41,115 bases of DNA, taken from assembly GCA_964554315.1 (NCBI GenBank), contig CAZKOI010000003.1, positions 1-41,115 of the forward strand, read 5' to 3'. The position numbers and the translations under genes are program-made. This document shows positions 904 to 40,832 of this stretch, in pieces. The notes beneath the pieces are model-generated. The model was not told the origin of the DNA. It saw only the letters and a program-made list of their open reading frames with translations, and ran no database searches. The stretch is from an uncultured Enterobacterales bacterium. Its GTDB lineage: Bacteria > Myxococcota_A > UBA796. Numbering within the stretch: the first letter of the stretch is position 1; each line of letters begins with the position of its first letter.

Positions 904-3066
904 ATGACGCCGGAGAGACCGCCGGAGAGTGGCCCAGGGCTTGCAGTCGACGACCCCATGATTTCTCCTCTCGCTTGGCTCGCCGTGGGCGCTGTCCTCG
1001 GTGCGTGGTCGTGGGCGCTGGCGGCCCTCACTCCGCCCCAGCTCGCGGCCGCGGCCTGCGCGGCGGCGGCGGCATCCTTCGCCCTCCCCGTGCGCCCTTC
1101 TCTGGTCCTGATCGGCATCGTCCTCGGGCAGGCCGCCATTGCTGCTCAGCCAGAGCCGGCAGCGCTCAGAGACTGGACCTCTGGCGAGGTCCTGGGGGTC
1201 TCGGGCCGATCCGTTCTCCTCAAGACACCCCAGGGCCACCTCTGGACCCAACTCTGGCCCAAACCCCCTCCTGTGGGCAGCCTCGTGGCAGGCCGCCTTC
1301 GGGCCTCCGCCCCTCGCCAGGCCCTCCCCGGCAGCTGGCCATCCCATGCTCAAGCCATCCTCTCCAGGGCTCATCAAGCCCGGATGCACCCGTGGGTCAG
1401 CCTGACCCCGAGCGAAGCGATGCCCACCGCCCTCGCGCATGTTCGACACCGCGGCCTTATCTGGGCGCTGGCAACAGGAGATCGATCCGCCATTGATGAC
1501 GAAACGACCAACCTGTTGCGCCGGACAGGAGCCGCCCACCTCCTCGCCATCAGTGGACTTCACGTCGGCATGGTCGCCGCGCTTGCTTGGGCCATCGCGT
1601 GGGCCCTGACCCGAGGCCTGACGTCGGGCCCCTGGCCGCCCATCGCGCGGGTCCTTCCTTCGCTCATGAGCGCGATCGCCGCCTGCCTCTACGCGCAGGC
1701 TGTCGGGTGGCCCGTCTCCACGCAGCGGGCCGCCATGATGGTCGCAGGAGCTTGTGCCTGCGCGATCATCGGGCGCCGGGTGGACCCCTGGCAGATCCTC
1801 GGCATCGCGGCGCTCGCGGTGCTCGCCGTCGAGCCTTCTCAGGTCGCCAGCCTGGGCTTTATGATGTCCTTCGGTGCGGCCGGGGCCCTCATCGGTTGGA
1901 TGCCTCGCTGGTCCACATGGACCGCCCATTACCTGCCGAGGCCCCTTCGCTGGGCGGCAAACAGTCTGGGTGTCACGCTCGTTGCCACACTCGGAACGCT
2001 TCCTTGCTCCGCCTGGGTCTTTCAGTCGGTCCCCATCGGAGGAATCCTCGCCAACCTGCTCGCAGTCCCCCTGTTCTCCCTGGTCACCGTGCCTGCTGCT
2101 CTCCTCGCGAGCTATGGTCCCGAGGTGTTCGCGAGCATGTTCGCTGCGATCGCGGAACGGAGCATCGACGCGGCCTTGGCATGGCTTGAAGTGTGCGATC
2201 TCGGCGAGCTCAATCCCGCCATCGGACCGGTCTTAGCCATCGCGCTCGCTGTCGCTGTGTTGACTCAACGCCCGAGGACGTTGGCGCTCATCGTGGCCTG
2301 CTCCGTGTTCTCCTTCTCTCTCCCGACCCGCGACCTTGTGGTCACGTTTCCCGCAGTGGGTCAGGGAAGCGCAGCGCTCGTTTCCTGGCCCGACGGCCGG
2401 ACGTGGCTCATTGACGGCGGCCCTGACGGACGCGGGCTGACTCAATGGCTTCGCCGCACCGGAATCGACACCCTTGATCGCGTCGTGGTCTCCCATCCTG
2501 ATCTCGATCACTTTGGCGGAATAGAGCCCGTCATCTCGTCGCTGGATATCGGCGAGCTGTGGTTATCGAGGCCGCCTGTGGCGGGCGAGGATCGGTACCG
2601 GCACCTGTGGCTCTTGGCTCACCAGAAGGCGATCACGATACGATCCTCCGTCGCTCAAGAGGGTCGTACGGACAACGATGCTGGCGTCGTCGTCAGCCTT
2701 CGTCACGGCCAGCACCGCTTCTTGTTCCTGGGGGATGTCAGTCGTGAAGTCGAGCGTGAGATTGCCCGTCAGCTACCGCGAACCTCTGTTGTTCAGATGA
2801 GCCATCATGGCTCAGGCCGATCGTCCGACCCTGCGATCGTCGATGCCACCAAAGCGGCGTTTGCCGTCGTTCAGAGCGGGCCAGGCAACCGCTACGGACA
2901 CCCGAGTCCCGAGGCAATCCGCCGCTGGTCCGGGACAAAGGTGCTTAGGACGGACACTCTCGGCAGCATCCGAATCCGGAGCAACGGGACCTCTTTGGTG
3001 GCACAGCGATGGGACCCGGTCTGGGGGTGGCGGTCCATACCCAGATCTCCTGCAGAGCAGCGTTGA
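904..3066 (+). CDS. comEC: DNA internalization-related competence protein ComEC/Rec2 (polytopic membrane domain plus C-terminal metallo-beta-lactamase domain)
   Basis: 720-aa ORF with many hydrophobic segments. It has the central competence-domain motif LLAISGLHVGMV and the C-terminal MBL motif VVVSHPDLDHFGG, followed by MSHHGS. The start is uncertain; an alternative ATG at 958 gives MISPLAWLAVGAV. Confidence 0.85.
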   Translation: MTPERPPESGPGLAVDDPMISPLAWLAVGAVLGAWSWALAALTPPQLAAAACAAAAASFALPVRPSLVLIGIVLGQAAIAAQPEPAALRDWTSGEVLGVSGRSVLLKTPQGHLWTQLWPKPPPVGSLVAGRLRASAPRQALPGSWPSHAQAILSRAHQARMHPWVSLTPSEAMPTALAHVRHRGLIWALATGDRSAIDDETTNLLRRTGAAHLLAISGLHVGMVAALAWAIAWALTRGLTSGPWPPIARVLPSLMSAIAACLYAQAVGWPVSTQRAAMMVAGACACAIIGRRVDPWQILGIAALAVLAVEPSQVASLGFMMSFGAAGALIGWMPRWSTWTAHYLPRPLRWAANSLGVTLVATLGTLPCSAWVFQSVPIGGILANLLAVPLFSLVTVPAALLASYGPEVFASMFAAIAERSIDAALAWLEVCDLGELNPAIGPVLAIALAVAVLTQRPRTLALIVACSVFSFSLPTRDLVVTFPAVGQGSAALVSWPDGRTWLIDGGPDGRGLTQWLRRTGIDTLDRVVVSHPDLDHFGGIEPVISSLDIGELWLSRPPVAGEDRYRHLWLLAHQKAITIRSSVAQEGRTDNDAGVVVSLRHGQHRFLFLGDVSREVEREIARQLPRTSVVQMSHHGSGRSSDPAIVDATKAAFAVVQSGPGNRYGHPSPEAIRRWSGTKVLRTDTLGSIRIRSNGTSLVAQRWDPVWGWRSIPRSPAEQR

Positions 3067-3067
3067 C

Positions 3068-3086
3068 ACCCCCATGGGACGGGGGT
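3068..3086 (+). terminator. candidate stem-loop just after the comEC stop
   Basis: ACCCCC (3068-3073), a 7-nt loop, then GGGGGT (3081-3086), starting 2 nt after the TGA at 3064-3066. There is no downstream U-tract, so the call is weak. Confidence 0.25.
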
Positions 3087-3102
3087 ACAAGAGGAGGGAG
3101 AC

Positions 3103-3133
3103 TTCAAACCCTTACGTAAACGTAAGATTTAAT
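3103..3133 (+). promoter_or_regulatory. candidate MerR-type promoter with a dyad operator in a 19-bp spacer
   Basis: TTCAAA (3103-3108), a 19-nt spacer, then TTTAAT (3128-3133). The spacer contains the inverted repeat CTTACGT-AA-ACGTAAG (3111-3126; 7-bp arms, 2-nt centre). It lies 22 nt upstream of the MerR-family gene ATG at 3155. Confidence 0.45.
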
Positions 3134-3154
3134 CCCTGATCCAACTGGCCATAA

Positions 3155-3637
3155 ATGTCCGCTGCAACCTTCCGAATCGGTGAGCTCGCCAAGCGTGCTG
3201 AGAAGACCGTGCGCACGATTCACTTCTACGAGGAGCTGGGCCTGCTCCAGCCGGCCTCACGCAGCCCAGGCGGATTTCGGATGTACAACAGTCAGGCGCT
3301 AGACCGCATCCACTGGATCGAGCGACTCCAGGAGCTCGGCTTCTCCCTCACCGACATCAAGCAGTTTCTCGCGGACTTCCACGCCCACGACACCGGGCCA
3401 CAGTCCATGGACGCCCTCCGGAGCTTCTACACCGAGAAGCTGGCCGAGACCCAGGAAGCGATCGGCCGCCTGCAGTCGCTAGCCGCCGAGCTCGAGGCCT
3501 CCATTTCTTACCTTCAGGCCTGCACCGGGTGCGCCGTGAGCGACCCCGTGCATGCCTGCGCACAGTGCGACGACGACCAACACTCCAACAGCGACACGCC
3601 GCGACTTGTGGCCACCATCGCGACGAGGCCTTCATGA
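3155..3637 (+). CDS. MerR family transcriptional regulator with a C-terminal CX2CX8CX2C cluster
   Basis: The N-terminal MerR helix-turn-helix signature is [26 protein letters not shown]...GGFRMY. A coiled-coil-like helix follows ([28 protein letters not shown]), then C123, C126, C135 and C138. The TGA overlaps the iscS ATG (ATGA at 3634-3637). Confidence 0.85.
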
Positions 3638-4857
3638 CGGTGAAGACCCCTATCTACCTGGACAACCATGCCACCACACCCTGCGACCCTCGCGTCGCTG
3701 AGGCCATGTGGCCCTACCTCACCGAGTCCTTCGGCAATGCTGCGAGCCGCAACCACGCCTTCGGCTGGGCGGCCAAGGAGGCCGTTGAGGTGGCGCGCGA
3801 ACAGATCGCTGATCTCCTCGGCGGCGACGCGAAGGAGATCGTGTTCACCTCCGGGGCCACCGAGTCGAACAACCTCGCCATCAAGGGCATTGCGAAGTTC
3901 TACCAGAGCCGCGGCAAGCACCTGATCACCGTAGCGACCGAGCACAAAGCGGTGCTGGACTCCGCCCACGCGCTCGAGGAAGAAGGCTGGGAAGTGACCT
4001 ACCTGGGCGTCGGCGAGGATGGCCGCGTCCAGCTTGACGAGCTCGAGGCCGCCTTCCGGGACGACACCGTGCTCGTGAGCGTGATGCTCGCGAACAACGA
4101 GATCGGTGTGATCCAGCCCATCGCCGAGATTGGCGAGCGATGCCGAGCGCGCGGAATCTTCTTCCACTGCGACGCAGTCCAGGGCTTGGGGCGCATTCCC
4201 TTCGACGTCAAGGACGCCAAGGTTGACCTCGTATCAATCTCGGCCCACAAGATGTACGGCCCCAAGGGCATTGGTGCGCTGTGGGTGAGACGCGGCCGCC
4301 CCCGGGTTCGCTTGGCGCCCATCATCGACGGCGGCGGCCACGAGCGAGGCATGCGGTCGGGCACGCTTCCCGTCCACCAGATTGTGGGATTCGGAAAGGC
4401 CGCCGAGCTCGCGAAGCAAGAACTTGAGAACGGCGGCATCGACCGCGTGCGGGCGCTCCGGGACAAGCTCTGGAGCGGCCTCCAGGAGCAGCTCGACGAG
4501 CTCTACCTGAACGGATCTTGGGAGCATCGCCTGCCCAACAACCTCAACGTCAGCTTTGCCTACGTGGAGGGTGAGGCCATGATGATGGGCATCAAGGACA
4601 TTGCCTGCTCATCAGGGTCCGCCTGCACCTCCGCCAGCCTCGAGCCGAGCTACGTCCTCCGCGCACTCGGCGTCGACGTCGAGCTCGCTCACACCTCCAT
4701 TCGCTTCGGCGTCGGACGCTTCACGACCGAGGAGGAGATCGACTTCGCGCTCGATCTCATCGTCAAGAAGGTGAAGTGGCTCCGGAGCATGTCACCCCTG
4801 TACGAGATGGTGCAAGAAGGCATTGATCTCAAGACCATCCAGTGGACTGCCCACTAG
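3634..4857 (+). CDS. iscS: cysteine desulfurase IscS (PLP-dependent)
   Basis: [16 protein letters not shown] start, the PLP-lysine motif [12 protein letters not shown], the active-site loop [21 protein letters not shown] and the C-terminal ...KTIQWTAH. The listed ORF starts at 3529. I chose the ATG at 3634 because it overlaps the upstream stop and matches the usual IscS N-terminus. Confidence 0.93.
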
Positions 4858-4874
4858 CAACTGAGGACCGAATC

Positions 4875-5261
4875 ATGGCCTACAGCGATAAAGTTATTGA
4901 CCACCTTGAGAACCCTCGGAACGTGGGCAGCATGGATCGGAATGATCCGGATGTCGGCACCGGCATGGTGGGCGCGCCCGCCTGCGGCGACGTGATGAAG
5001 CTCCAGCTCAAGATCAACGACAGCGGAATCATCGAGGACGCAAAGTTCAAGACCTTCGGGTGCGGCTCAGCGATCGCCTCAAGCTCGCTCATCACCACCA
5101 TGGTGAAGGGGCAGTCCATTGATCAAGCGCTGGCCATCTCCAACGCTGAGATCGCCAAGGAGCTGTCGCTCCCTCCCGTCAAGATCCACTGCTCGGTGCT
5201 GGCTGAGGATGCCATCAAGGCCGCGATCAACGACTACCAGACCAAGAAAGGGAACGGATAA
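4875..5261 (+). CDS. iscU: Fe-S cluster assembly scaffold IscU
   Basis: MAYSDKVIDHLENPRNVG, GAPACGDVMKL, FKTFGCGSAIASSS and IHCSVLAEDAIKAAINDY (three conserved Cys). GAGGA lies 7 nt upstream of the ATG at 4875. Confidence 0.93.
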   Translation: MAYSDKVIDHLENPRNVGSMDRNDPDVGTGMVGAPACGDVMKLQLKINDSGIIEDAKFKTFGCGSAIASSSLITTMVKGQSIDQALAISNAEIAKELSLPPVKIHCSVLAEDAIKAAINDYQTKKGNG

Positions 5262-5264
5262 GCC

Positions 5265-5597
5265 ATGGCCGTGACGATGACCGACGCTGCGATCAAGCGG
5301 GTGAGGACGCTCTGTAAGAAGCGTCAGACACCCGACGCGGTCCTACGGGTCGGCGTCCGCGGCGGCGGCTGCTCGGGCTTGTCGTACTTCATGGACTTTG
5401 TGGAGCAAGCCGAGGAGAAGGACAAGATCTTCGAGTTTGGCGAGCCCGCGGTTACCCTGGCTGTGGACCGCAAGTCGTACCTCTTCCTCAACGGCACCGA
5501 GATCGACTTTGAGCAAACCATGATGAAGAGTGGGTTTCAGTTCAACAACCCCATCGCCGGCCGGTCCTGCTCCTGCGGTGAGTCGTTCACGCTCTAG
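5265..5597 (+). CDS. iscA: A-type Fe-S carrier IscA/HesB family
   Basis: 110 aa with LRVGVRGGGCSGLSY and the C-terminal CSCGESF motif. It follows iscU after 3 nt. Confidence 0.9.
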   Translation: MAVTMTDAAIKRVRTLCKKRQTPDAVLRVGVRGGGCSGLSYFMDFVEQAEEKDKIFEFGEPAVTLAVDRKSYLFLNGTEIDFEQTMMKSGFQFNNPIAGRSCSCGESFTL

Positions 5598-5606
5598 AGG
5601 CTGGTC

Positions 5607-6167
5607 TTGATCTGCTGGCAATGCCATGAGTCGACCCAGGGGGCGGTGTGCGTCGGATGTGGCGCCCTTCAGCCCCCGCCGCCAAAGGCCGACCCCTTTG
5701 TGGTTCTCGGCCTCCCGCGCCGGTTCGCCACCGATGCAGAGTCGGTCGAGGCAGCTTGGCGGGCCGTGTCGCGCGCGGTTCATCCCGACCGCTGGGCGGG
5801 CAAGCCGGCCGTCTTCCGACGGATGAGCCTTCAGTGGACCGCAGCCGTCAACGAGGCTCGCCGCGTTCTCTCGGACCCCCTCTCTCGAGCCTGGTACCTC
5901 GCCACCGGCTCGCCATCACCGCCCGAGCGAGGCGGACCTCAGCCCGACGGTGACTTCCTCGAGGCCATCTTCGATCTCCAGATGATGAGTGCTGCCGATC
6001 CTGAAGGAGCAAGAGAGACCGTACGGCAGATGTGGGATACACACCGCCAGCAGCTCGACCAAGCCTTCAGCGCCTACGAGTCAGGCTGCGGCACCCTCGA
6101 TGGCGTGGAGATGATTCTCGCTAAGCTGCAATATCTGAACACCGCGCGCACCCAGACAGGCGCATAG
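5607..6167 (+). CDS. hscB: Fe-S co-chaperone HscB (J-domain) with an N-terminal tetracysteine motif
   Basis: J-domain sequence [35 protein letters not shown] (HPD present) and position between iscA and hscA. TTG start at 5607 with AGAGG 6 nt upstream. No in-frame ATG exists before the Cys motif C3-X2-C6-X8-C15-X2-C18. Confidence 0.8.
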
Positions 6168-6178
6168 ACGGAGCCGCC

Positions 6179-8020
6179 ATGGCCAACATTGGTATCGATC
6201 TCGGAACCACCCACTCCCTCGTTGCCGTCGTCATCGATGGCAAGGCACGCGTGCTGCTCGATGACGATGAGCGCCCCCTCCTGCCCAGCGCTGTCCGCTA
6301 CGACGGAGAGGGTCAGCCCGTCAGCGTCGGCTACCCCGCGCTCGAGGCTGCACCCAACCCCGACGGAACCACCTTCACCAGCGTCAAGCGCTTCATGGGC
6401 CGGTCCGGTGCGGAGGTCGCTGACGAAGCCCGACTCTTTCGCTACGACTTGGTCGAAGATGACGCACAGGCCGTTCGATTTCGGGTGGGCCCGAGGGAAG
6501 TCACCCCGATCGAGGTGAGCTCATTCATCCTGCGCCTGCTCCACGCGCGCGCCGAGGAGTGTTTGTTTGGGCGACCCGGGGGCGCGGTCATTACGGTTCC
6601 AGCCTACTTTGACGACGCCCAGCGCCAGTCCACCCGCGATGCCGCCAAGGTGGCAGGAATCAACGTCCTGCGACTCCTCAATGAGCCCACCGCCGCCGCC
6701 CTCGCCTATGGCCTCAACGAGGGCAAGGAAGGCCAGACCGTCGCCGTGTTCGACCTCGGCGGAGGCACCTTCGACATCTCCATCCTCCGGCTCGAGGACG
6801 GCATCTTCCAGGTCCTCAGTACCGCCGGTGACACCCACTTGGGGGGTGACGACTTCGACCAAGCACTCGCTGGGGTCCTGCTCAGCCAGGCGGGCATTAC
6901 CGATGCCGACGGTCCGACTTACCGTGCCGCTATCGGGGCCGCTGAGCGCGCCAAGCGGGCCTTGTCGGCCGAAGACACCGCCACGCTGAGCGCAACCCTC
7001 GGCGGCCAAGCCGTCGAGGCGGAGATTGATCGCGCGAGCTTTGAGAACTTGATCCGACCCATCGTGAGCCGAACTGGAAATGCCTGCCAGCAGGCCTTGA
7101 GCGATGCCGGTCTGAGCGCCAGCGACATCGATGAGGTCGTGCTCGTGGGCGGCTCGACGCGGGTCCCTCTCGTTCGCGCTTTCGTCGCCGAGCTCTTCGG
7201 GCGGACCCCGCACTGCGATCTCGACCCGGACCAGGTCGTGGCCTTGGGTGCCGCTCTTCAGGCGGACATCCTCACGGGAGAGAGCGAGCTGGCTGAGGAC
7301 ATGCTGTTGCTCGATGTCGTGCCGCTCAGCCTGGGTCTCGAGATGATGGGCGGCGTCGTGGAGCGGCTGATTCCTCGCTGCAGCGCGATCCCTGCTGCCC
7401 AGTCGCAGACCTTCACCACCCATGTCGACAACCAGACCGCGGTCGATATTCACATCGTACAGGGCGAGCGAGAGTTGGTCGGAGACTGCCGCAGCCTAGG
7501 GCGCTTCAAGCTCACAGGAATCGCCCCGCAGCCCGCCGGAACACCCCGAATCAAGGTGGAGTTCATGGTCGATGCAGACGGCATCCTTCGCGTGCAGGCA
7601 ACGGATGCGGCGACGGGCGCCAACACCAGCGTCGAGGTTCAGCCCAGCTACGGCTTGTCCGAAGACGAGATCGAGACGATGCTTGAGGCGGCCATCGACC
7701 ACGCAGAGAGCGACGTCGATGAACGGCTGCTGATCGATGCGCGAATTGAGGCCGAGCAGATCGCGAACCAGGTCCAGAAGGCCATCGCCGCCGATGGAGA
7801 CATGCTCGAGGCTCCCGAGCGCGCCCAGATTGAGGACCTCTTGGACACCCTTAGAGACGCCATGAGCGGCGGAGACCGCCACCGAATCTCCGAGCTCTCT
7901 CACCGGATCGATGAGGTCACGGCACCCTTCGCCCAGCGGCGAATCGAGCGAGACCTCGAGCTTGCCATTCAGGGCAAGGCGGCCTCGGAGGTTGCGAAGG
8001 AACTGGGCGTCTCGAAGTAG
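6179..8020 (+). CDS. hscA: Fe-S protein assembly chaperone HscA (Hsp70 family)
   Basis: 613 aa with [35 protein letters not shown] and a C-terminal helical lid. It sits directly after hscB. Confidence 0.9.
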
Positions 8021-8029
8021 ACTCTCGGC

Positions 8030-9424
8030 GTGGCACGATACGCGACAATGGTGGCCCTCTGGGCCCTTGCTGCTTGGCACAGACTGCGCTTGGTCGAGCA
8101 CGCGATCGTGGGGTCAGACTCTCTAGGCCCCTACCTCCAAGCCAAGGCGGCCTTGCTCGGTCACGTGCCTCGTCCACCGAACCCCGAGAGCGGCGACGCA
8201 CTGTGGTTGCTTGCGGTGCCGCTGGTGTCCTTAGCCGACTCATTGGAGGCACTGTTCGAGGCGCGATTTGTGCTGGGCGGCGTCGTAGCGCCCCTGGCCT
8301 TTGCCGCTGCTTGGCATTGGGCCGACGATGACGTCTCTGCGGCGCGGCGATGGGCGGGGGCGCTGGCGGCCGGGGTCCTGATGGCCTTCGATCCAGGCTT
8401 GGTTGACACCTTAGTGAGCGGGGCGCGGAGCTACGGTGCGCCCGAGCTTGTGGGCCTAATGACCCTCGGTGTCGCGCTCGCCATCCGCGGCTACACCCAC
8501 GGCTTAGCCCTCGCCATGTTGGGGCTGGTCTGGGCCGCGGGACACCACCCGCTCTCGATCGGAGCCGCCGCGGGTCTCTGGCTCATGTGGCCACAACGCG
8601 AAACATGGCGCGTCCGGCGGGCAGCGCTCCTCTTCGGTGCACTCCTCGCGGTACCGAGACTGCTCAGGCTCGCCAAACTTGCCCTCTGCGGGGAAGGTCT
8701 CGTGCCCTGCATTGTGCGCGTCGCACAGAGCAACAACAGCACGGCGGAGCCGATGCTTTCCCAGCTGAAGACCGCAATGCACGACCGCTTCTTGGTCGAC
8801 TGGGGCTCGGGTCTATGGGTGGTTCTTGCGGGGGTCCTGGCCACAGCACTGTGCCGGCACCGAACTCACCGACGCGCAGCAGGCTTCGCCGTGCTCTGTC
8901 TGATCGGCCTCGTCAGTGTCGGAATGCTGAACGGCTACCTGCGGTCGTACCACCTTCGGATCATCGCTGTTCCGCTCGCGGTCGCAGCAGGGCTCGGCCT
9001 GGCCAGGGCCTGGCCCCTGGCGCCTCTCGGCGCGCTCGCGGCCGTGATGAATTGGCAGCCACACCTGATCGTCGGGCCGGATCCCGGCGCCGTCGCCCGT
9101 CATGATCGCATCGCGGCCGAGCTTCCCTCAGGTCCTAAGTGGGTAGACCGCGTCTGGTGGTCGGGTTCACCGACCGTGGATGCATCAGCCGTCGTCCTGA
9201 GCGGCATGCTGCAAGGCGCCGAGGGCTTCGCCCTCGGGCCTGATGTTCCCGTCACGCTTCTCTCAGTGGAAGACAATTCCTGGGAGGTCATGCGTTTCAG
9301 GACATCAACCGAGGCTCGCTCATGGTTAGATGGACAAGGTCGGACGCCCCATCAGCGGGGTGGAGCGTATGACTGGGCAACAATTGTCGATCCCTCTACC
9401 CGCCTCGAGGATGCCCGCTGGTGA
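8030..9424 (+). CDS. polytopic integral membrane protein of unknown function (possibly GT-C-like) with a soluble C-terminal domain
   Basis: 464-aa ORF with about 10 hydrophobic segments and a roughly 110-aa hydrophilic C-terminus. It begins 9 nt after the hscA stop, and its stop overlaps the next GTG (GTGA at 9421-9424). The start is uncertain (GTG 8030 or ATG 8048). No family motif was recognised with confidence. Confidence 0.55.
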   Translation: MARYATMVALWALAAWHRLRLVEHAIVGSDSLGPYLQAKAALLGHVPRPPNPESGDALWLLAVPLVSLADSLEALFEARFVLGGVVAPLAFAAAWHWADDDVSAARRWAGALAAGVLMAFDPGLVDTLVSGARSYGAPELVGLMTLGVALAIRGYTHGLALAMLGLVWAAGHHPLSIGAAAGLWLMWPQRETWRVRRAALLFGALLAVPRLLRLAKLALCGEGLVPCIVRVAQSNNSTAEPMLSQLKTAMHDRFLVDWGSGLWVVLAGVLATALCRHRTHRRAAGFAVLCLIGLVSVGMLNGYLRSYHLRIIAVPLAVAAGLGLARAWPLAPLGALAAVMNWQPHLIVGPDPGAVARHDRIAAELPSGPKWVDRVWWSGSPTVDASAVVLSGMLQGAEGFALGPDVPVTLLSVEDNSWEVMRFRTSTEARSWLDGQGRTPHQRGGAYDWATIVDPSTRLEDARW

Positions 9425-10239
9425 CACTGAGCGTGCGCGAACGTGAATTCAAGATCGGCCCCTACCGGGTGATCCGCCACATCGCGCAGGGAGGCATGGG
9501 CGCCGTCTATGAAGTCGAAGACCCCACCAAAGACGGGCACTTCGCCCTCAAGCTCGGCGCAAATGATCACGGCAGAGACCCTCGATTCCTCCAGATCCAT
9601 CGCTCGCTTAGCCGCGTTCCACACCCTGGGATCGTGAACAGTCATGCCGTCGGTACCACACCGGATGGCCGCTCATTCCAGCTGCTCGACCTGATTCACG
9701 GGGAGCCGGCCCAGGTCTTCGCGCGAAGCATGGGCAGCCCGGGATCTCGGGTACGGTCAACGGCAGTCATCACCGTGGCCATCCACTTGGCCGAGGCCCT
9801 CGCGCACCTCCACAGTCACTCCATCATCCACCGCGACATCAAGTCTTCCAACGTCATGGTCCGACAGGACCACAGCGCCTGCTTAATCGACTTCGGTGCA
9901 GCCATCTTACCCGGTCTGCCCATGCGCCCGGGGCGCTTTGTCGGGACCTACAGCTATGCCGCACCGGAGCATATCCGTGGCGAGCCGCTCGATGGGCGTG
10001 CCGATGTCTACTCGATGGGGGTGCTCCTCCACCGAATGCTGAGCGGAAGACCACCGTTCGCGGCCGACACCACCAAGGACCTCATCCACCAACACCTTCA
10101 CGCGCCGCCGCCTCGCCTCGATGCCTCTCTCCTCGATCTTCCCTCCACCGTCGTCGAGCTGACGCTCGCCATGCTCGAGAAAGATCCCGCCCACAGGCCC
10201 AACGCTCAAGGCGTCGCCCAGACGTTGATGCAGGCCTGA
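9421..10239 (+). CDS. Hanks-type Ser/Thr protein kinase, kinase domain only (272 aa)
   Basis: IAQGGMGAVYEV (Gly loop), FALKL (Lys), HRDIKSSNVMV (catalytic loop), DFGAA and SYAAPE. There is no extra regulatory or transmembrane domain. Confidence 0.85.
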   Translation: MTLSVREREFKIGPYRVIRHIAQGGMGAVYEVEDPTKDGHFALKLGANDHGRDPRFLQIHRSLSRVPHPGIVNSHAVGTTPDGRSFQLLDLIHGEPAQVFARSMGSPGSRVRSTAVITVAIHLAEALAHLHSHSIIHRDIKSSNVMVRQDHSACLIDFGAAILPGLPMRPGRFVGTYSYAAPEHIRGEPLDGRADVYSMGVLLHRMLSGRPPFAADTTKDLIHQHLHAPPPRLDASLLDLPSTVVELTLAMLEKDPAHRPNAQGVAQTLMQA

Positions 10240-19510: not shown

Positions 19511-22500
19511 ATGTCGGCTTCACCGACACTCCCCGACCGCTACGAGCTGATCGGTAAGATCGGCGAGGGCGGGTCTTGCTCGGTCTACCGAGCCCGCGAC
19601 ACTCACCTCGAGCGGGATGTCGCCATCAAGGTGGTGCGTCGAAGCCTCGCCATCCATGCTCGATTTCGAGCACGGTTTGCCCGCGAGGTGACCCTCTCAG
19701 CCAAGGTCGTACACCCCCGCATCATTCCGGTGCTGGATACCGGTCGGCTCGACGATGGACGGCCCTACGTCTCCTTGGCCCACGCCGACCACGGCAGCCT
19801 CTCGGACATGCTCAGACAGCGCCCTCCCATGAGTGATGCGCTGCAGATCATCCACCAGGTCCTCGATGCTCTGGCCCACATTCACGCCCACGGCTTCCTC
19901 CACCAGGACCTCAAGCCCGCCAATGTGCTCTTGCACGCTCAGGGCTCGAACACCGTCGATGCCTGGGTGACCGATCTCGGCGTGGCTGGGGCGATCACCG
20001 AGCTGGCGCTTCAGCAGCAGGGCATGGGCGGCACCCCCGTCTGGATGGCGCCCGAGCAGCGAGAGGGGCACTACGCCGAGCTCGGCCCCTGGACGGACCT
20101 GTATGCCGTCGGCTTGATGCTCTTTGAGATCTTGGGCGGCGATCGCTCTGGCGATACTCCGGGCTCTCGACGCCTCCTCGACCCCCTACCGGCCGGGCCG
20201 CTGGGCCTCGCCGAGGACATCCCCGTCGCGCTGGAGAATGTCGTTCGAAACCTCCTCCAGCCCGATCCGAGAGAGCGCTACGACCACGCCATGGATGTCG
20301 CCCGAGCGCTTCAACAGGCGACCAGCGACAACACGCTCTCCATGCTCGTGCCTCAACCTGTCGGCACATTCATGAGCCAGAGCTTCTCCGAGTTCTTGGT
20401 CGGACAAGGCCACGAGAGCAACCCCAAGCCGATGGTTCCTGTGCCTGAGGCCGGGGTTCGCTGGAACCGTGTCCAGCCCGGCGAGATGCCTGCGGAGCCT
20501 CCACCCCATCCCGCATCCGGCGCCGAGATCGGCGGCCTCACCATGGTTGGCATGAAGGACCCCCCCATCGACAGGCATGAAGACATTCGGTGGATTCTCT
20601 GGCAGCAAGCGAGAGAGGTCGTTCAAACCGGTGAGCCTCGGGTGGTCCTGTTGATCGGCGAAGAGGGCGCAGGCAAGTCACGCACGGCCCGGAGCATCGT
20701 CCGCACGATTGCCGCGAGCGGTCACATGGAGACCGTAGAGCTGCGGTACCACCAGCCCGCAGGCCCTGAGGACGGCTACCGAGGCGCAGTCCAAGAGATC
20801 TTGGCCCCGTGGAACGATAACCGCGAACGCCTGCAGGCTCGTCTCACCCGATGGCTCAGCCGAGACCAACAGCGAGACCCCGCCTCGGTGCGCGTCGAGG
20901 CCAGCGTACTGGCCCGATGGTGCGGCTACATGCAGGAGGGAGAGACCCCAGTGAACGCAGCGGTGGGTCTCGCCTTTCTGTACCGGCACCTCCATGCGCG
21001 AGCGTGGCGAGGAGGGGCCCTGTTGCTCCTGGAGAAGGCTCACCTCGCTCAAGAAGCAGGCGATGGCCTCAGCATCTGCGATGCCATCATCGACAGGAGC
21101 ATCGGCGAGCGACCCTTCTTGGTGATCGCTACCCTCTCAGCGGATGCCATCCGAAACGATCCGAAGCTCGCCGCCCGCGTCATCTCCATGGAGCAGCGAG
21201 GTGCGCTCAAGCTTGAGCTGTCGAAAATGTCAGACAGCGAGATTCGCACATTCCTTCGCCAGAGCCTTTCGCTCGACCCCAACCTCGCCGAGACCATGGC
21301 GCCGCTGTGCGAGGGGAGTCCTGGCCGCGCCATCTTGTTGATCCGAGACATGGCCACGCGGGGACTCCTCCACCAGCGCAAGGACGGCACGCTCACGCTC
21401 GATCCTCTCGTGATGCAGGAGGAGCTGGAGTATGAGGACATCGAGAGCGTGTACCTGTCTCGCATCCGTGGTGCGATAGACTCAACCGAATCTCCAGACG
21501 CCGCCTATGAGGCGCTCGCCGCGACGGCACTGGCCGGCCAAGAGCCTCCCGCTATGGTGGTGCGGCAGGTCAACCCCCAGGGTCTCGATGCTCTGCTGGC
21601 GACCGGACTCCTGCGGCAGCAGGCATGGCGCCTGGTCTTCGAGCACAGCCAAATCCATCGCGCGGCACTCCAGATTGCCTTGGGTCGGCCTCAGGTCAAG
21701 GAACTCCATCGAAGGCTGGGCGACGCGTGGGAACGGCTCCGAGAGCAGACGGGAGCGGACGTCGACCTGCCGGTCGGCATCCATCGACTCCACGCTGGGC
21801 AGGCCGGACCCGCCGTGGTTCCGCTGATCCGCGCTGCGCGCCGCACCAATCAAGAGGGCCGACTGGCTCTATCCATGAATGCGGCACGGCTGAGCATCGA
21901 CGCCTCTGACAAGGCAGGAGGCTTAGCCGCCCGGGCGGAGGCCCGCATTCGAACCGCGAAGGCGCTCATCAGTAACTCTCGTCCGAGCGAGGCTGTCCGG
22001 GTCATCCGAGACGCCGCCGAGTTGGGAAAGATCGACCGACTCACCGAGGCCCGAATGGCCGTCACGCGAGCCCATGCCGAGACGGAGATAGGCCACCTCG
22101 ACAGTGCTCGACGCCACCTCAGCGACGCCATTGTGACCTTCCGAGCAACTCAGGATCGCGCCGGGCTCGTCGAGACGGCAGCAGCGATGGCGCGCGTGCA
22201 CCGCCTCGAGGGGCGCCCGGGTGAGGCGGCACTCCAGTACGAGCGCATGCTGGAGCTGAACCGCTCCGATAAGCGCATCGAGGGACAGGCGCTCAATGGA
22301 CTGGTTGAAGCCCGCTGCTCCAGCGGAGACCTCGACGGCATCGCTCCCATGCTCCAGCGCCTCCAGGCCGTCGCCGTTGAGACAGGCGACACCCGAAGGA
22401 TCGCCAAGGCCACCTTTGCGGCCGGCCTCGTTCACTTGACGCTCCGGGAGTTGACACACGCCGAGGACCACTTCCAAACGACGCGCGCTCTCGCCGTCAC

Positions 22501-22993
22501 CATAGGAGACGATCGCCTCCAGCTCGACGCCGAGAACAACCTCGGCGAGGTCTACCGGATGCGAGGCGACAGCCGGGAAGCGGAGCGAATGTACGAGGCT
22601 GTAGCGAGGCTTGCTCTGGAGCGAGAGTGGATGGCCAGCGCGGCCATCGCCCACATCAACCTGACCTTCATCTGCCAAGACCGCGAGGACAACCACTTCG
22701 CTCGAATCGCCATCGACGAGGCCGAGAAGTGCTTGGCCGACCTACCGGAGCACTGGGCCTGGATGTACGTGGGACTGATCCGGTCGGGGTGGGCTGCTGA
22801 GGTGAGCGATGAGCCTCGGTGTCGAGCGTGGTGGTCGGTCGCGAATGATCGCGGACTGGGACGGGTTATGTCGGTTGACCAGATCAAACCTCTCGAGCGG
22901 ATCATTCGAGCAGCAGAGACCAACGGCTGGTCAGACCTCGCGGTCCGGGCCGGTCACTACCGCGACGCGGTGATTGGAAACCACTCGGCCTAA
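19511..22993 (+). CDS. Ser/Thr protein kinase fused to a P-loop NTPase (STAND/AAA-like) and TPR repeats
   Basis: 1160 aa. The N-terminal Hanks kinase has IGEGGSCSVYRA, VAIKV, HQDLKPANVL, DLG and WMAPEQ. Walker A is LLIGEEGAGKS at aa 380-390. The C-terminal third is TPR-like helical repeats. It starts 6 nt after the cyaY stop. Confidence 0.85.
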   Translation: MSASPTLPDRYELIGKIGEGGSCSVYRARDTHLERDVAIKVVRRSLAIHARFRARFAREVTLSAKVVHPRIIPVLDTGRLDDGRPYVSLAHADHGSLSDMLRQRPPMSDALQIIHQVLDALAHIHAHGFLHQDLKPANVLLHAQGSNTVDAWVTDLGVAGAITELALQQQGMGGTPVWMAPEQREGHYAELGPWTDLYAVGLMLFEILGGDRSGDTPGSRRLLDPLPAGPLGLAEDIPVALENVVRNLLQPDPRERYDHAMDVARALQQATSDNTLSMLVPQPVGTFMSQSFSEFLVGQGHESNPKPMVPVPEAGVRWNRVQPGEMPAEPPPHPASGAEIGGLTMVGMKDPPIDRHEDIRWILWQQAREVVQTGEPRVVLLIGEEGAGKSRTARSIVRTIAASGHMETVELRYHQPAGPEDGYRGAVQEILAPWNDNRERLQARLTRWLSRDQQRDPASVRVEASVLARWCGYMQEGETPVNAAVGLAFLYRHLHARAWRGGALLLLEKAHLAQEAGDGLSICDAIIDRSIGERPFLVIATLSADAIRNDPKLAARVISMEQRGALKLELSKMSDSEIRTFLRQSLSLDPNLAETMAPLCEGSPGRAILLIRDMATRGLLHQRKDGTLTLDPLVMQEELEYEDIESVYLSRIRGAIDSTESPDAAYEALAATALAGQEPPAMVVRQVNPQGLDALLATGLLRQQAWRLVFEHSQIHRAALQIALGRPQVKELHRRLGDAWERLREQTGADVDLPVGIHRLHAGQAGPAVVPLIRAARRTNQEGRLALSMNAARLSIDASDKAGGLAARAEARIRTAKALISNSRPSEAVRVIRDAAELGKIDRLTEARMAVTRAHAETEIGHLDSARRHLSDAIVTFRATQDRAGLVETAAAMARVHRLEGRPGEAALQYERMLELNRSDKRIEGQALNGLVEARCSSGDLDGIAPMLQRLQAVAVETGDTRRIAKATFAAGLVHLTLRELTHAEDHFQTTRALAVTIGDDRLQLDAENNLGEVYRMRGDSREAERMYEAVARLALEREWMASAAIAHINLTFICQDREDNHFARIAIDEAEKCLADLPEHWAWMYVGLIRSGWAAEVSDEPRCRAWWSVANDRGLGRVMSVDQIKPLERIIRAAETNGWSDLAVRAGHYRDAVIGNHSA

Positions 22994-36425: not shown

Positions 36426-37136
36426 CTACTCCGTGGCGAGCTCGTAGCGGAAGCTGCTGTTGCCGATCCGAACCCGATCGCCGCTTCGAAGCGGCTGGGA
36501 GGTCACGGCCTGCTCGTTCACCGTGACCTTGATCATCCGTCCTTGCTTGTTCAGGACGTGGTTCTTGCCGTCCCACGAGACGTCGGCCACGACGCCCCCC
36601 GAGAACATGCCCTCGACCGGAATCATTCCGTCTCCGCCGAAGGTCAAAGACCGGTCCTCCGGGTGCCAAAACCGGGCCTGATTGGTGACCAATACAAGGC
36701 GAGCGTTTCGCATCTTGTTGACCTCGTCCTGCATCTGCCTCAGCTGCGCCGGCGACATCGCAAAGGTCGAGTCGTCAAAGTTTCGCGCCTTTGCGTCATA
36801 GCGAACCATGTACTCCAGAAAGCGACCCTTGTAGAACCGATCATCGGGCCCGTCACCCATGTACACCAGGTTGAACTTTCCGAGGAGAATCTCATCACCA
36901 CTACCGAGAATGGCCCCCTCGACCGTTCGACCATTCACCATGGTGCCGTTGCTGCTGCCCAGGTCTTCGATGGAGCAGGTGTGACCGTCCCAGAGCAGCT
37001 GGGCATGGTGCCGACTCACCGAAATGTTCGGGAGCATCAGGTCTGCGTCATCGCCACGGCCGATCACCACCTTGTCCTTCTCAATGTCGAAGACCCTGCA
37101 ACCCTCTGCTTGATTGAGAATGACGATCCGAGGCAT
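36426..37136 (-). CDS. FHA domain-containing protein
   Basis: The N-terminal FHA signature is VVIGRGDDADLMLPNISVSRHHAQLLWDG...IEDLGSSNGTMVNG. The C-terminal half resembles a second, degenerate FHA-like beta-sandwich (LTFGGDG...VTVNEQAV...GDRVRIGNSSFRY). AAGGAG lies 6 nt upstream of the ATG. Confidence 0.85.
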   Translation of the reverse strand: MPRIVILNQAEGCRVFDIEKDKVVIGRGDDADLMLPNISVSRHHAQLLWDGHTCSIEDLGSSNGTMVNGRTVEGAILGSGDEILLGKFNLVYMGDGPDDRFYKGRFLEYMVRYDAKARNFDDSTFAMSPAQLRQMQDEVNKMRNARLVLVTNQARFWHPEDRSLTFGGDGMIPVEGMFSGGVVADVSWDGKNHVLNKQGRMIKVTVNEQAVTSQPLRSGDRVRIGNSSFRYELATE

Positions 37137-37175: not shown

Positions 37176-37658
37176 TTACGCGTTGGCCTTGATTGCGTCC
37201 ACCACTCGAGGGAGCAGGTCGTTCCAGTCCACATCAGCGGCCTTTGAGACCGTGATGAAATCGTTCACACCGAAGACGCTGACCACACCCTCAAGAGCGA
37301 CAACGGCAGCCGCGATAGGATGCGCGATGTCCTGGTCTCCTGAGTTGAAAGAGAAGGAGCCCGTCTCTGCGACCTTCACACTCAGCGCGAATTTCATGGC
37401 GTTCGGGTTGGGCGTCTCCTGCGGGTCCACCTGAATGTCAGACCGCTTTGGCGCCTTGGTGACCCGCTTCTTTGGGGGGGCCTTCTTCGGGGCGGGCTTG
37501 GCGCTCTCGGTCGGGGTTGCCTCGGCTCTGGGAGGGGCTGCAGGCGCCGCGACCGGTGCCATAGGGGGTGCCGGTGAGGGCGCATTTCTCTCCCCGTCCA
37601 TGACGCTGATCGCCCGCTTGAGCACTCGGATGGGAAGGCTTGCAAATCGTCGAATCAT
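37176..37658 (-). CDS. Nfu_N (scaffold protein Nfu/NifU N-terminal) domain protein with a Pro/Ala/Lys-rich N-terminal region
   Basis: The C-terminal roughly 85 aa (IQVDPQETPNPNAMKFALS...HPIAAAVVALEGVVSVFGVNDFITVSK...W) match the Nfu_N pattern (TPNPN.LKF). No CxxC NifU C-terminal domain is present. GGAGGA lies upstream of the ATG. Confidence 0.7.
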   Translation of the reverse strand: MIRRFASLPIRVLKRAISVMDGERNAPSPAPPMAPVAAPAAPPRAEATPTESAKPAPKKAPPKKRVTKAPKRSDIQVDPQETPNPNAMKFALSVKVAETGSFSFNSGDQDIAHPIAAAVVALEGVVSVFGVNDFITVSKAADVDWNDLLPRVVDAIKANA

Positions 37659-38539: not shown

Positions 38540-39388
38540 CTACTTCTTCCCGAACAGCTTTCCGAAGAACCCGGGCTTCTTGGCGGCTTCTTGCGGCTTC
38601 TGCGAGGCCGTCTTCCCCTCAAGGCGCCGCAGCTCGCGGGGCGCATCAGGATTAGCGGGGTTGAACTTCAAAGCCTGGACCAACGCACGCTTGGCGGCAT
38701 CTTTCTCGCCAAGCTCTCGATAGGCCCGCCCCAGCAGCACCCAGCCTCCATCCAGTCGCCTCTGCTGGTGGGAGTTGGCGTCGAGGATGTCCTTGAGGTC
38801 GGTCATCGCTCCGTCTGCGGCCTCCGCATCGGTGCCTCGATTTAGCGCAAAGGTGGTGTAGGCCTTGTAGGCCCCAAACTCCAGCTCGTCCGGAGCCTGC
38901 TCGCACGCGGACTCGAAGAGCTTGTGCGCTGCACTCAGTCGGCCTGCATTGAACGCCGCCAGACCCTTCTTGAAGTCCGCCTCGGCGTCCAAGAGCGCCT
39001 TGACCTGCGCCATTGCCTCCTCTTCCTCCGTAGGCTTTCCAAGAATGACGTGGTCGATGTACTTCTGGCGCTTCTCGTCCGTCTCAACCGCCTCCCAGGC
39101 TGCACGAACCTGGTCAAAGGCCTCCGTTGCCTGATCTTGGACCTCTGGGGAGGCATCAGAATACTTGTCAGGGTGGAGCTGGTTGGCCAACGCCATGTAG
39201 GACGAACGAAGCGCGTCCGTTGCCGCCTCGGGATCCAACCCAAGGACCTCGAAGGCATTCTGGGCGGCCTCCATTCGAATCCTCAGGGTGTTGAGTTGCG
39301 CCACCATCGGGTGGCCGCTCGAGGTGTCCACAGGGGCACCCACTTCCTCAGCGATCATGTTCGCAATGTCCAGACCATCACCACTCAC
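38540..39388 (-). CDS. J-domain (DnaJ-like) protein with C-terminal TPR-like repeats
   Basis: J-domain AFEVLGLDPEAATDALRSSYMALANQLHPDKY, then TPR-like helices (LGRAYRELGEKDAAKRALVQALKFNP). The start is set at GTG 39388, with GAGGAG 6 nt upstream. The listed ORF to 39547 would run across the htrA start. Confidence 0.7.
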   Translation of the reverse strand: MSGDGLDIANMIAEEVGAPVDTSSGHPMVAQLNTLRIRMEAAQNAFEVLGLDPEAATDALRSSYMALANQLHPDKYSDASPEVQDQATEAFDQVRAAWEAVETDEKRQKYIDHVILGKPTEEEEAMAQVKALLDAEADFKKGLAAFNAGRLSAAHKLFESACEQAPDELEFGAYKAYTTFALNRGTDAEAADGAMTDLKDILDANSHQQRRLDGGWVLLGRAYRELGEKDAAKRALVQALKFNPANPDAPRELRRLEGKTASQKPQEAAKKPGFFGKLFGKK

Positions 39389-39458
39389 AGCGTACTCCTC
39401 AGGGACATTGGAGTGTACCACGGGTCGTCGCGGTGGTGGTTTCGGGTAAGCTGGCCTC

Positions 39459-40832
39459 ATGAAGGTGAATCGACTGTGGTTGCTCGTGCTGCTGTGGCTC
39501 GCTCCCGCGAGCGTGCGCGCCCAAGGCATCGGGCCCGACTTCACCACACTCTCGGCAGCCGCGGTGCGAGTAACGGTTCACATCCAGGTCGAGCGAGGCC
39601 CCCTGATCGCAGCCGGAATCCAGCAGCTTGCGAGGGAGCGCCTCATTCCCGCGCCCCGCCCTCAGGCGTCCGGTTTGCAGACCTCTTCGGGTTCTGGCGT
39701 TATCTTCGACAAATCGGGCCTCGTGCTCACCAACCACCATGTCATCAACGGCGCAACCACCCTCCGGGTGTCGATGCACGACAAGCGAGTCTTCAAAGCC
39801 GAGGTTGTCGGGAGTGATCCAAGAACCGACTTGGCGGTCTTGGCGATCAAGGGACCGGGGCCCTTCGAGGCCGCCAACTTCGCCCTCGATGAACCGGTGC
39901 AGGTGGGCGAGTGGGTCGTGGCAGTGGGCCACCCCTTCAACTTCCCCTTCACGGTCACGGCGGGAATCGTGAGCGCCCTCGGCAGGCGCGGGCTCGCTCG
40001 AAATGAGATCCAGGACTACATCCAGACCGATGTTGCCGTGAACCCCGGATCGAGCGGCGGGCCATTGTTCGACACCACCGGCGCGGTGGTGGGCATCAAC
40101 ACCGCCATATTCAGCCCCGACAAAGAGAACACCGCGAGCGCCGGCATATCCTTCGCTATCCCTGCAGCCATGGCCCACCGCGTGGCGTCAAAGCTCGCCG
40201 CAGGCGAGCCCATCGCCACGGCAGGTATTGGACTGCGCATAGACGATGCCCAAGCCACGGCGACTGAGTCCCGCCAGGGCGCACGAGTCACGCAGGTCAT
40301 TGCCGGCGGACCGGCCGAGCAAGCCGGTGTACGGCGGGGCGACATCATTTACGCGGTGGACGGCGTCCGGGTTGGAGGACGGGCGGACTTTACCGGCGTC
40401 CTTCAAGCCAAGGACGTCGGCGTCCTGGTGTCCCTGGATCTTGCGAGAGGTCCCGTCTCAAAGATCATTGAAGTCCGCACACAGGATGCATCAAAGATTG
40501 GCGCACAGCTGGGGGTTGAGAAGGAAAAAACCAAGCAATGGGCAGGACTCAGCATGATGGACGCCACACCCGAGCGTCTCCTTGCACGAGGCATCTCGGC
40601 GCCGGACCGAGACGGCGGGAGCGTCCTTGTAACCGCTGTAGAGCCCGGCAGTCCGGCCTCAGTCGCAGGTCTTCTGCCCGGTGATGTCCTGCTGCAAATA
40701 CAAGAATCGCCCATCAAAAGTGTGGACGAACTGCTCAAGACAGTGGACAATCGGCGTGTGGTGCTGGTCTCGTTTTGGCGAGGCGAGAGCCGCTACTTGG
40801 CTGCGCTGGCTAACCGGGTTGATCCTGGCTAG
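39459..40832 (+). CDS. HtrA/DegP/DegQ family periplasmic serine protease with two PDZ domains
   Basis: Signal peptide MKVNRLWLLVLLWLAPASVRA. Catalytic motifs are LTNHHVI, DLAVL and TDVAVNPGSSGGPLFD. Two PDZ-like segments are present (GARVTQVIAGGPAEQAGVRRGDII and VLVTAVEPGSPASVAGLLPGDVLL). Confidence 0.9.
   Translation: MKVNRLWLLVLLWLAPASVRAQGIGPDFTTLSAAAVRVTVHIQVERGPLIAAGIQQLARERLIPAPRPQASGLQTSSGSGVIFDKSGLVLTNHHVINGATTLRVSMHDKRVFKAEVVGSDPRTDLAVLAIKGPGPFEAANFALDEPVQVGEWVVAVGHPFNFPFTVTAGIVSALGRRGLARNEIQDYIQTDVAVNPGSSGGPLFDTTGAVVGINTAIFSPDKENTASAGISFAIPAAMAHRVASKLAAGEPIATAGIGLRIDDAQATATESRQGARVTQVIAGGPAEQAGVRRGDIIYAVDGVRVGGRADFTGVLQAKDVGVLVSLDLARGPVSKIIEVRTQDASKIGAQLGVEKEKTKQWAGLSMMDATPERLLARGISAPDRDGGSVLVTAVEPGSPASVAGLLPGDVLLQIQESPIKSVDELLKTVDNRRVVLVSFWRGESRYLAALANRVDPG

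Follow-up and report, generated by a model that had tools for sequence, protein, structure and literature searches.

Within the 41,115-nt stretch of contig CAZKOI010000003.1 analysed here (the window, in whose numbering all positions are given), the gene at the head of the isc operon for iron-sulfur (Fe-S) cluster biogenesis encodes a MerR-family regulator with four cysteines in an enlarged loop, rather than an Rrf2 protein of the IscR type. As judged from its sequence, the protein represents a distinct subfamily of the MerR family, and a three-way linkage exists between this regulator, a 22-bp palindromic operator and the isc or suf genes. We consider it very probable that the protein is a dedicated regulator of isc/suf acting through that operator, and it has probably taken the place of IscR, the usual regulator, at the head of the isc operon. 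That a member of the MerR family should act as a transcription factor is well known; what is new is the sensor loop, the target and the atypical position of the operator.

The first-pass annotation, which was made from the DNA letters of the window, had described a MerR-type and not an Rrf2-type gene directly 5' of iscS and overlapping it by ATGA, and both parts of this description hold. The stop codon TGA (3635-3637) shares ATGA (3634-3637) with the iscS start codon (3634-3636), in agreement with the codon positions. The product matches the Pfam families MerR_1 (E 3.5e-16), MerR (E 8.3e-12) and MerR-DNA-bind (E 1.1e-11), and neither the Pfam nor the NCBIfam search gave an Rrf2 match. Its winged helix-turn-helix (HTH) scores 59.5 bits with PF13411 (cut-off 21.6) and 45.2 bits with PF00376 (cut-off 28.2), and its dimerisation region, which scores 45.5 bits with PF09278, is helical in the AlphaFold2 model. 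That model, built with an alignment of 47 sequences (A1; mean column identity 51%), has the MerR fold at a mean predicted local distance difference test score (pLDDT) of 90.9. The top 50 Foldseek matches are MerR-family structures only, including CueR, SoxR, CadR, PbrR, BmrR and NmlR, and GlnR and TnrA are among the PDB profile matches. The fold is thus that of MerR and not the Rrf2-type winged helix with a C-terminal site of three cysteines (plus histidine). The curated models for ZntR, CueR, MerR, CadR and SoxR score 50-78 bits against cut-offs of 117-168 (ZntR, 78.1 against 143; CueR, 74.1 against 147.4; MerR, 68.5 against 150.9; CadR, 59.6 against 151.5; SoxR, TIGR01950, 50.8 against 116.9). 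Since the NCBIfam metal-sensor models all fall far below their cut-offs, the regulator belongs to none of these families.

The subfamily carries a four-cysteine motif, which every full-length member that was examined retains. The arrangement C123-X2-C126-X8-C135-X2-C138, noted earlier at nt 3521-3568, is read from the codons without exception: all four are TGC (3521-3523, 3530-3532, 3557-3559 and 3566-3568), the protein has no other cysteine, and the residues are invariant among homologues in A1, as is P149 of a conserved C-terminal tail. A word-indexed search of 5.8 billion proteins gave 484 homologues at E<=1e-3, and CX2C-X8-CX2C is exact in 118 of the best 120 (50-99% identity); of the other two, one is a 127-residue fragment and one departs from the family in its C-terminus. 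When 1.84 billion cluster representatives were searched exhaustively with a profile, 174 clusters (50% identity) came up at E<=1e-30, as against 9,073 generic MerR proteins at 1e-10. Among the best 150 family representatives, 121 keep the pattern C-X2-4-C-X5-16-C-X2-C, and the remainder are mostly truncated or frameshifted, with four having the cysteine pairs further apart; the tail recurs among distant representatives as P(E/S/D)L(V/I)xG. The homologues come from metagenomes and metagenome-assembled genomes, labelled mostly Myxococcota, 'Deltaproteobacteria' and Polyangia, and no cultured organism was found among them.

In an alignment with SoxR, CueR, ZntR and MerR (A2), for which the reference sequences were entered by hand, C123 falls on SoxR C119, CueR C112, ZntR C114 and MerR C117, C126 on SoxR C122, and C138 on SoxR C130, CueR C120, ZntR C124 and MerR C126. 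Given this correspondence with the reference loops, the motif is best described as an enlarged version of the MerR metal-binding loop, with 16 residues from first to last cysteine as against 9-12 in the references. The trans-subunit cysteine with which ZntR and MerR begin their dimerisation helix is absent. The PDB profile alignments end where the dimerisation helix ends and the Foldseek matches cover the MerR core only, so that no match was obtained for the cysteine region itself.

Whether such proteins are regularly linked to iscS, a question raised by the first-pass annotation, could be answered from genomes and metagenomes alike. Scanning one genome per GTDB species, we found 300 stretches that encode a relative and analysed the best 80 loci (46-78% identity). 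iscS lies directly 3' on the same strand in all 80, two of which hold only a cut fragment of it; where at least 450 nt of downstream sequence are available, it is the next gene in 78 of 78, and iscU, iscA, hscB and hscA follow wherever the contig extends. Regulators with variant motifs also head iscSUA-hscBA, namely P0140 (CX2C-X9) and P0174 (CX3C-X8), the latter in a locus that additionally carries fdx, with cyaY nearby. Regulator and operator are likewise found at the head of suf operons: in five metagenome loci the regulator is followed by an A-type carrier (sufA-like), by SufC and, where the contig continues, by SufB. Counting all of these, regulator, operator and isc (suf in five) co-occur in about 145 informative loci; the downstream neighbour is isc in 139 and suf in 5, and a transporter was never seen there. 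The earlier suggestion of a non-orthologous occupant of the IscR position, dedicated to Fe-S biogenesis, is supported by this co-occurrence. No Rrf2 gene is present among the major open reading frames (ORFs) of the window, and tblastn with E. coli IscR and NsrR, entered by hand, detected no Rrf2 gene either in the window or in the roughly 6 kb covered around any of the loci; the IscR query had no positive control, while a Fdx query entered in like manner did find matches.

The suf-linked loci are L091, L092, L144, L151 and L196. All five have a conserved TACGAT hexamer 3' of the operator, along with a strong AGGAGG Shine-Dalgarno sequence, and the one regulator of this group that was read, in L092, has the motif CX2C-X9-CX2C.

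The operator itself, which we predict to be the binding site of the MerR-type dimer, was recognised in the window by an inverted-repeat search as a perfect core, CTTACGT-AA-ACGTAAG (3111-3126). The upstream regions of the loci give the consensus A-C-(C/T)-C-T-n-A-C-G-T-n-n-A-C-G-T-n-A-G-(G/A)-G-T. In 856 kb of sequence (loci plus window) there are 99 matches at 15 or more of its 20 positions, every one of them immediately 5' of the regulator gene. One or two copies are present in 79 of the 80 genome loci, the remaining locus having no upstream sequence; the operator was never found elsewhere in the +/-6 kb flanks of the loci, and with up to 3 mismatches allowed the 41-kb window contains no other match than this one (0.01 expected).

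The linkage also holds in the reverse direction. When public metagenome contigs were scanned with the exact degenerate DNA pattern alone (ACYCTYACGTNNACGTRAGRGT), 120 loci were returned. A family regulator lies right beside the site in 96 of them; in 10 the contig ends too near the site to judge, 13 have no family gene nearby, and one (L195) has an unrelated 123-residue MerR protein adjoining a major facilitator superfamily (MFS) transporter. For 30 of the 96 regulator-bearing loci the contig is too short to tell the downstream gene; among the informative loci iscS follows in 61 of 67 and sufA-sufC in 5. Only one of the 13 regulator-free matches is related to Fe-S biogenesis, L145, in which the operator (2763-2784) stands 23 nt 5' of sufC-sufB with no regulator gene nearby, a hint that the regulator may possibly act on suf in trans.

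We also considered the other regulator-free matches as a wider regulon. They appear to be due to chance, some 10-20 chance matches being expected by a rough estimate, and they lie at an MsbA-like ATP-binding cassette (ABC) exporter and at malate dehydrogenase, thiL and ABC substrate-binding protein genes, as read from translations. At the start of the MsbA-like exporter gene, with an amidase gene adjoining, the operator-like palindrome is present on two homologous contigs (L103, 895-916; L139, 878-899), and its conservation between these two is probably fortuitous.

The operator is in many loci only 3-12 nt away from the start codon, so that its right arm, (A/G)AGGGT (3120-3129 in the window), may double as a Shine-Dalgarno sequence. 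The window itself has a gap of 25 nt between operator and start codon, and no obvious Shine-Dalgarno sequence. The features of the window that bear on the regulator and its operon are collected in Table 1.

Table 1. Coordinates of the regulator gene, its predicted control elements and the surrounding isc operon in the window.
Feature	Position (nt)	Strand	Basis
ComEC/Rec2 gene, upstream neighbour on the same strand as the regulator	904-3066	+	Pfam
Candidate sigma-70-like promoter P1: TTGACA (3063-3068), 17-bp spacer, TACAAG (3086-3091)	3063-3091	+	Read from sequence; conservation
Predicted 22-bp operator ACCCTTACGTAAACGTAAGATT = ACCCTTACGT-nn-ACGTAAGGGT	3108-3129	.	Inverted repeat, conserved across loci
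Possible alternative promoter P2: AT-rich TTTAATCC right after the operator, degenerate TATAnT-like -10	3128-3136	+	Weak; upstream alignment
MerR-family regulator gene, 160 aa	3155-3637	+	ORF call, Pfam, AlphaFold2, Foldseek
Winged HTH of the regulator, residues 6-73	3170-3373	+	Pfam
Dimerisation helix of the regulator, residues 81-122	3395-3520	+	AlphaFold2 model
C123-X2-C126-X8-C135-X2-C138, expanded metal-binding loop, presumed sensor site	3521-3568	+	Alignments
Conserved C-terminal tail: H143 (>=90%), P149 (invariant), then L/M-V (V152 >=90%)	3581-3613	+	Alignment A1
iscS, cysteine desulfurase	3634-4857	+	NCBIfam PRK14012, 683.8 bits (cut-off 548), aligned 2-407 of 407
iscU, scaffold	4875-5261	+	TIGR01999, 222.2 bits (cut-off 192.4)
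A-type Fe-S carrier (iscA)	5265-5597	+	TIGR00049, 118.2 bits (cut-off 58.8)
hscB, co-chaperone, with N-terminal CX2C-X8-CX2C head	5607-6167	+	DnaJ domain; HscB models below cut-off
hscA, chaperone, last recognisable isc gene	6179-8020	+	PRK05183, 776.2 bits (cut-off 620)

The sign of regulation has to be judged from where the operator lies with respect to the promoter. The P1 pattern TTGACA-N17-TAnAnn is kept at the same place in the closest loci, L001-L005, L083, L128, L136 and L190. Across the genome loci, a candidate promoter of the form TTGAC(n)-N16-17-TA(t)A(a)C overlaps the start of the operator by up to 4 nt in 39 of 80 (by 2-4 nt in 37), a layout in which the operator would span roughly -8 to +14. 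In about 17 loci the operator instead starts 3-19 nt downstream of the -10 element, the window being one of them at 16 nt, and in 15 loci two operators 32-54 bp apart lie 5' of the gene and flank the core promoter where one is recognisable; two operators likewise flank the promoter in L201 and L202. Given these positions and the variable distance to the -10 element, the arrangement is of the repressor type, unlike the fixed spacer of classical MerR activators, and from the sequence layout we favour autorepression as somewhat the more probable sign. The spacer of P1 in the window is filled by an inverted repeat, ACCCCC/GGGGGT (3068-3086), which may belong to the promoter or be what is left of a terminator, and the stop codon of the ComEC/Rec2 gene (3064-3066) falls within the TTGACA hexamer.

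SufR uses an Fe-S cluster as the signal that it senses. The same is true of IscR and RisR (PMC9973013, PMC11672702). RisR of Myxococcus xanthus, an Rrf2 protein of group IS6 with a probable [4Fe-4S] cluster, is a repressor of Fe-S biogenesis that binds palindromes overlapping the -10/-35 elements of isc and suf; the isc operon of that organism has no regulator gene of its own and is served by RisR, encoded at suf (PMC9973013). Given that the operon in the window makes Fe-S clusters, that its first product carries a Cys4 loop and that the predicted site of this product lies on the operon's own promoter, the simplest circuit is one resembling that of IscR or RisR. With IscR the regulator shares its place as first gene of the isc operon and an operator in its own promoter, and this combination predicts negative autoregulation coupled to the output of the ISC system. 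The proteins themselves are unrelated, IscR having the Rrf2 fold and the regulator a MerR winged HTH and coiled coil; IscR uses three cysteines and a histidine as ligands as against four cysteines, and its operator differs in sequence from the 22-bp palindrome. RisR, too, belongs to a different protein family, although its host is of the same phylum and the MerR-type gene holds the suf-head position of RisR in five loci. The RisR box (TtGAC-N7-GTCCt; GAC-N7-GTC) is absent from 3040-3160 of the window, as read by eye.

Based on these observations, we propose a model in which an Fe-S-loaded MerR-type dimer represses its own isc operon as a homeostatic feedback, a model that we hold as a whole with about even confidence. 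First, the homodimer would bind the 3108-3129 palindrome, which lies in the promoter region of the operon that encodes it, so that regulator, iscS, iscU, iscA, hscB and hscA would be autoregulated as one unit, as is done by iscR in E. coli. The enlarged Cys4 loop that follows the dimerisation helix would receive an Fe-S cluster from the ISC (or SUF) machinery, and the cluster-loaded dimer would sit on the operator and block transcription. Under iron limitation or oxidant attack, as clusters run short or are destroyed, the protein in its apo or damaged state would release or remodel the DNA and the operon would be derepressed. Our inferences are that the protein binds DNA at this site, that the promoters lie where we place them, that the protein acts as a repressor and that its ligand is an Fe-S cluster; on the last of these, the cluster is our leading candidate, in a judgement that is evenly balanced.

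Several points weigh against this proposal. A strict sigma-70 scan of 2900-9600 found no promoter and no meaningful terminator; P1 is rejected by that scan because its -10 element ends in G, and across the loci the final base of the -10 hexamers is C or G where the consensus has T. Since the strict scan is empty, our statements on promoters are drawn from conservation between loci, and 22 of the 80 loci have no recognisable promoter. A TAnnnT hexamer begins on the operator's final base in near relatives of the window and in suf-linked loci, an arrangement that would leave the operator within a spacer of 18-19 bp. The pattern CX2C...CX2C is equally a classic one for structural zinc or for a thiol switch, and residues 123-160, in which the AlphaFold2 model has three short helices, are modelled with moderate confidence (pLDDT 77-84). 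Finally, a separate Rrf2 regulator could be encoded elsewhere in the genome.

The spacer-type layout leads to the strongest alternative, which we regard as possible but on balance doubtful: a classical switch of the MerR/SoxR type, in which the protein would always be bound to its operator and would activate a promoter with an over-long spacer by untwisting the DNA, for example on oxidation or loss of the cluster. This is the default mode of the family, and the operator has the same length, 22 bp, as those of CueR and ZntR. In L002, L003, L083, L128, L136 and L190 the final T of the operator is also the first base of a hexamer of the TATAnT kind (TATAAG, TATAAT, TATAGT, TATACT or TATATT), which precedes the ATG by 6-7 nt; TACGAT likewise begins on that T in the five suf-linked loci and in L129, and in L092 TAGACT overlaps the start of the operator at a spacing of 18 bp. 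The window can itself be read as TTCAAA (3103-3108), 19 bp and TTTAAT (3128-3133). This P2 hexamer, however, is without the key A at its second position and is separated from the ATG by 21 nt, and TAnnnT is present at that position in only 18 of 170 loci. Moreover, the logo shows neither a -10 signal on the 3' side of the operator nor a TTG on its 5' side, in 39 of 80 loci a good TTGAC-N17 -35 element instead sets the -10 element at the operator's 5' edge, and a distance between -10 element and operator that ranges from a 4-nt overlap to a 19-nt gap is incompatible with a mechanism specific to one helical face at that promoter. Given the spacer-type layout in near relatives and suf-linked loci, regulation may have a different sign in different clades, or a dual one, and activation of the MerR type may operate in some of them. 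MerR-fold repressors that sit on promoter elements without untwisting DNA exist in HspR, CarH/LitR and GlnR/TnrA; these use B12, glutamine synthetase or chaperone effectors and have no Cys4 loop.

The first-pass annotation had suggested that the protein could be SoxR-like, and this stands for the position of the cysteines, C123, C126 and C138 falling on those of SoxR as described above. SoxR has the same fold (Foldseek 2zhg, E 7e-6), and in both proteins four cysteines from one protomer lie in a loop after the dimerisation helix, with no trans-subunit ligand; the SoxR loop holds a [2Fe-2S] cluster (PMC11672702). Membership of SoxR proper fails on the TIGR01950 score and on the spacing of the cysteines, CX2CXCX5C in SoxR and CX2C-X8-CX2C here, a difference that had been rightly pointed out from the start. 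The likeness does not extend to the placement of the operator, which fills a 19-bp spacer in SoxR and mostly overlaps or follows the -10 element in the present family, nor, probably, to the mode of action. SoxR targets soxS or efflux and redox genes, whereas isc/suf is the target here, and unlike SoxR the regulator is encoded in its own target operon, which it would autoregulate.

A second alternative, which we consider unlikely, keeps the regulator and the operator and changes the chemistry: the Cys4 site would hold structural or redox-labile zinc, or form two disulfides, as a thiol switch of the RsrA/Hsp33 type, and oxidation would free the protein from the DNA and raise isc expression without any Fe-S cluster. 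The spacing CX2C-Xn-CX2C is indeed typical of zinc ribbons and knuckles, a likeness that the first-pass annotation had also remarked on, the variation in the family (a loop of 5-16 residues, with a first pair that can be CX3C) is of a kind that zinc sites tolerate, and the HscB of the same operon has a tetracysteine head of identical spacing, which recalls the zinc-binding head of eukaryotic HscB. On the other hand, the cysteines are part of the effector-binding loop of a MerR fold and do not form a separate ribbon domain, the AlphaFold2 model places short helices there and not beta-knuckles, and hhalign detects no relationship to the HscB head (probability 11.7%). To our knowledge, every dedicated regulator of Fe-S biogenesis senses through a cluster. 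These points are not decisive, and they leave the cluster as our leading candidate for the ligand.

It is also conceivable, if quite improbable, that the loop binds a single Fe(II) in the manner of rubredoxin, or another metal ion, and that the protein is an iron or metal sensor that would tune ISC to the iron supply. The closest profile matches are the mononuclear sensors ZntR, CueR, MerR and CadR (E 1e-22 to 1e-16), which are the best relatives in both sequence and structure, have their sensor loop at the same place and use palindromic operators of 21-22 bp with ACC...GGT edges, and four thiolates in one loop could make an Fe(Cys)4 site. Yet the scores with the models of these four sensors are far below the cut-offs, the trans-subunit cysteine of ZntR and MerR is missing, and the loop has 16 residues and four cysteines as compared with 9-11 residues in these sensors. 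Unlike them, the regulator is never linked to a metal transporter or to efflux or detoxification genes, its linked genes being only isc or suf, and its operator lies mostly outside the promoter spacer. The remaining possibility, that this is an ordinary heavy-metal or drug-responsive MerR protein beside iscS by accident, would agree with the public annotation of relatives as 'copper efflux regulator' or 'Zn(II)-responsive regulator of zntA' but is effectively refuted by the adjacency to iscS (78 of 78 genome and 61 of 67 metagenome loci, the exceptions being suf operons), by an operator confined to these promoters, by the reverse test and by the wide margin at which the cut-offs of the named metal-sensor families are missed.

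Neither fdx nor iscX is among the isc genes of the window, in which tblastn with Fdx gave zero matches. hscA is followed by a hydrophobic ORF of 464 aa with no Pfam match (8030-9424), which is syntenic 3' of hscA in about 20 related loci; fdx occupies that place in 41 others. On the 5' side, ComEC/Rec2 is a conserved upstream neighbour in about 30 related loci. The head of HscB, C3-X2-C6-X8-C15-X2-C18 (cysteine codons within 5613-5660), has the spacing of the tail of the regulator, and a tetracysteine head (X7-X9) is kept in 93 of 94 HscB proteins of related loci. Eukaryotic HscB homologues bind zinc through an N-terminal domain with such a cysteine head, which that of the window recalls. We examined whether the HscB head and the Cys4 tail of the regulator are a common module, and this was unsupported, the hhalign probability of 11.7% extending over 22 columns.

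Elsewhere in the window, some 30 kb from the isc operon, lie genes for a 160-aa Nfu_N-domain protein (37176-37658, minus strand) and a DnaJ-TPR protein (38540-39547, minus strand), with no operator match near either. Two eukaryotic-type Ser/Thr kinases and one FHA-domain protein are encoded at 9421-10239, 19511-22993 and 36426-37136, one of the kinases being a protein of 1,160 aa with AAA and TPR domains. This gene content, together with a G+C content of 64%, fits a Myxococcota-like genome.

Control of Fe-S biogenesis is understood almost entirely through the Rrf2 proteins IscR, RisR and RirA, together with SufR. Neither our full-text literature searches nor the 2024 metal-sensor review contained a MerR regulator at isc or suf, and the subfamily, the description of which the first-pass annotation had suggested looking for, is apparently undescribed; in that review SoxR is the sole Fe-S-binding MerR protein. 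We therefore put forward, rather tentatively and at a little less than even confidence, that the regulator belongs to a second, independently evolved Fe-S-binding MerR lineage after SoxR. Such a lineage would read the Fe-S status of the cell through a Cys4 cluster in an enlarged metal-binding loop, would repress at -10/+1, which is unusual for a MerR protein with a metal loop, in some cases from two operators on either side of the promoter, and would control both ISC and SUF across a large, uncultured, Myxococcota-like branch. The comparative data already define the operator, the sensor loop and the set of targets (isc, and suf in some lineages), and with a protein of 160 aa and a site of 22 bp the hypothesis can be tested in vitro with no need to culture the host. 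The result also provides a rule for annotation by which relatives now labelled as copper or zinc efflux regulators could be corrected.

If our proposal is true, a whole and mostly uncultured branch of the bacteria would have swapped Rrf2 and SufR regulators for a protein of the MerR fold. This would be a clean natural example of convergence, in which one more regulator scaffold was recruited to Fe-S homeostasis, the fourth besides the Rrf2, SufR and RirA-type proteins, and the regulator would possibly be the second Fe-S protein of the MerR family after SoxR. It would also offer a test of whether the allostery of the MerR metal-binding loop can power simple repression and not the untwisting of DNA.

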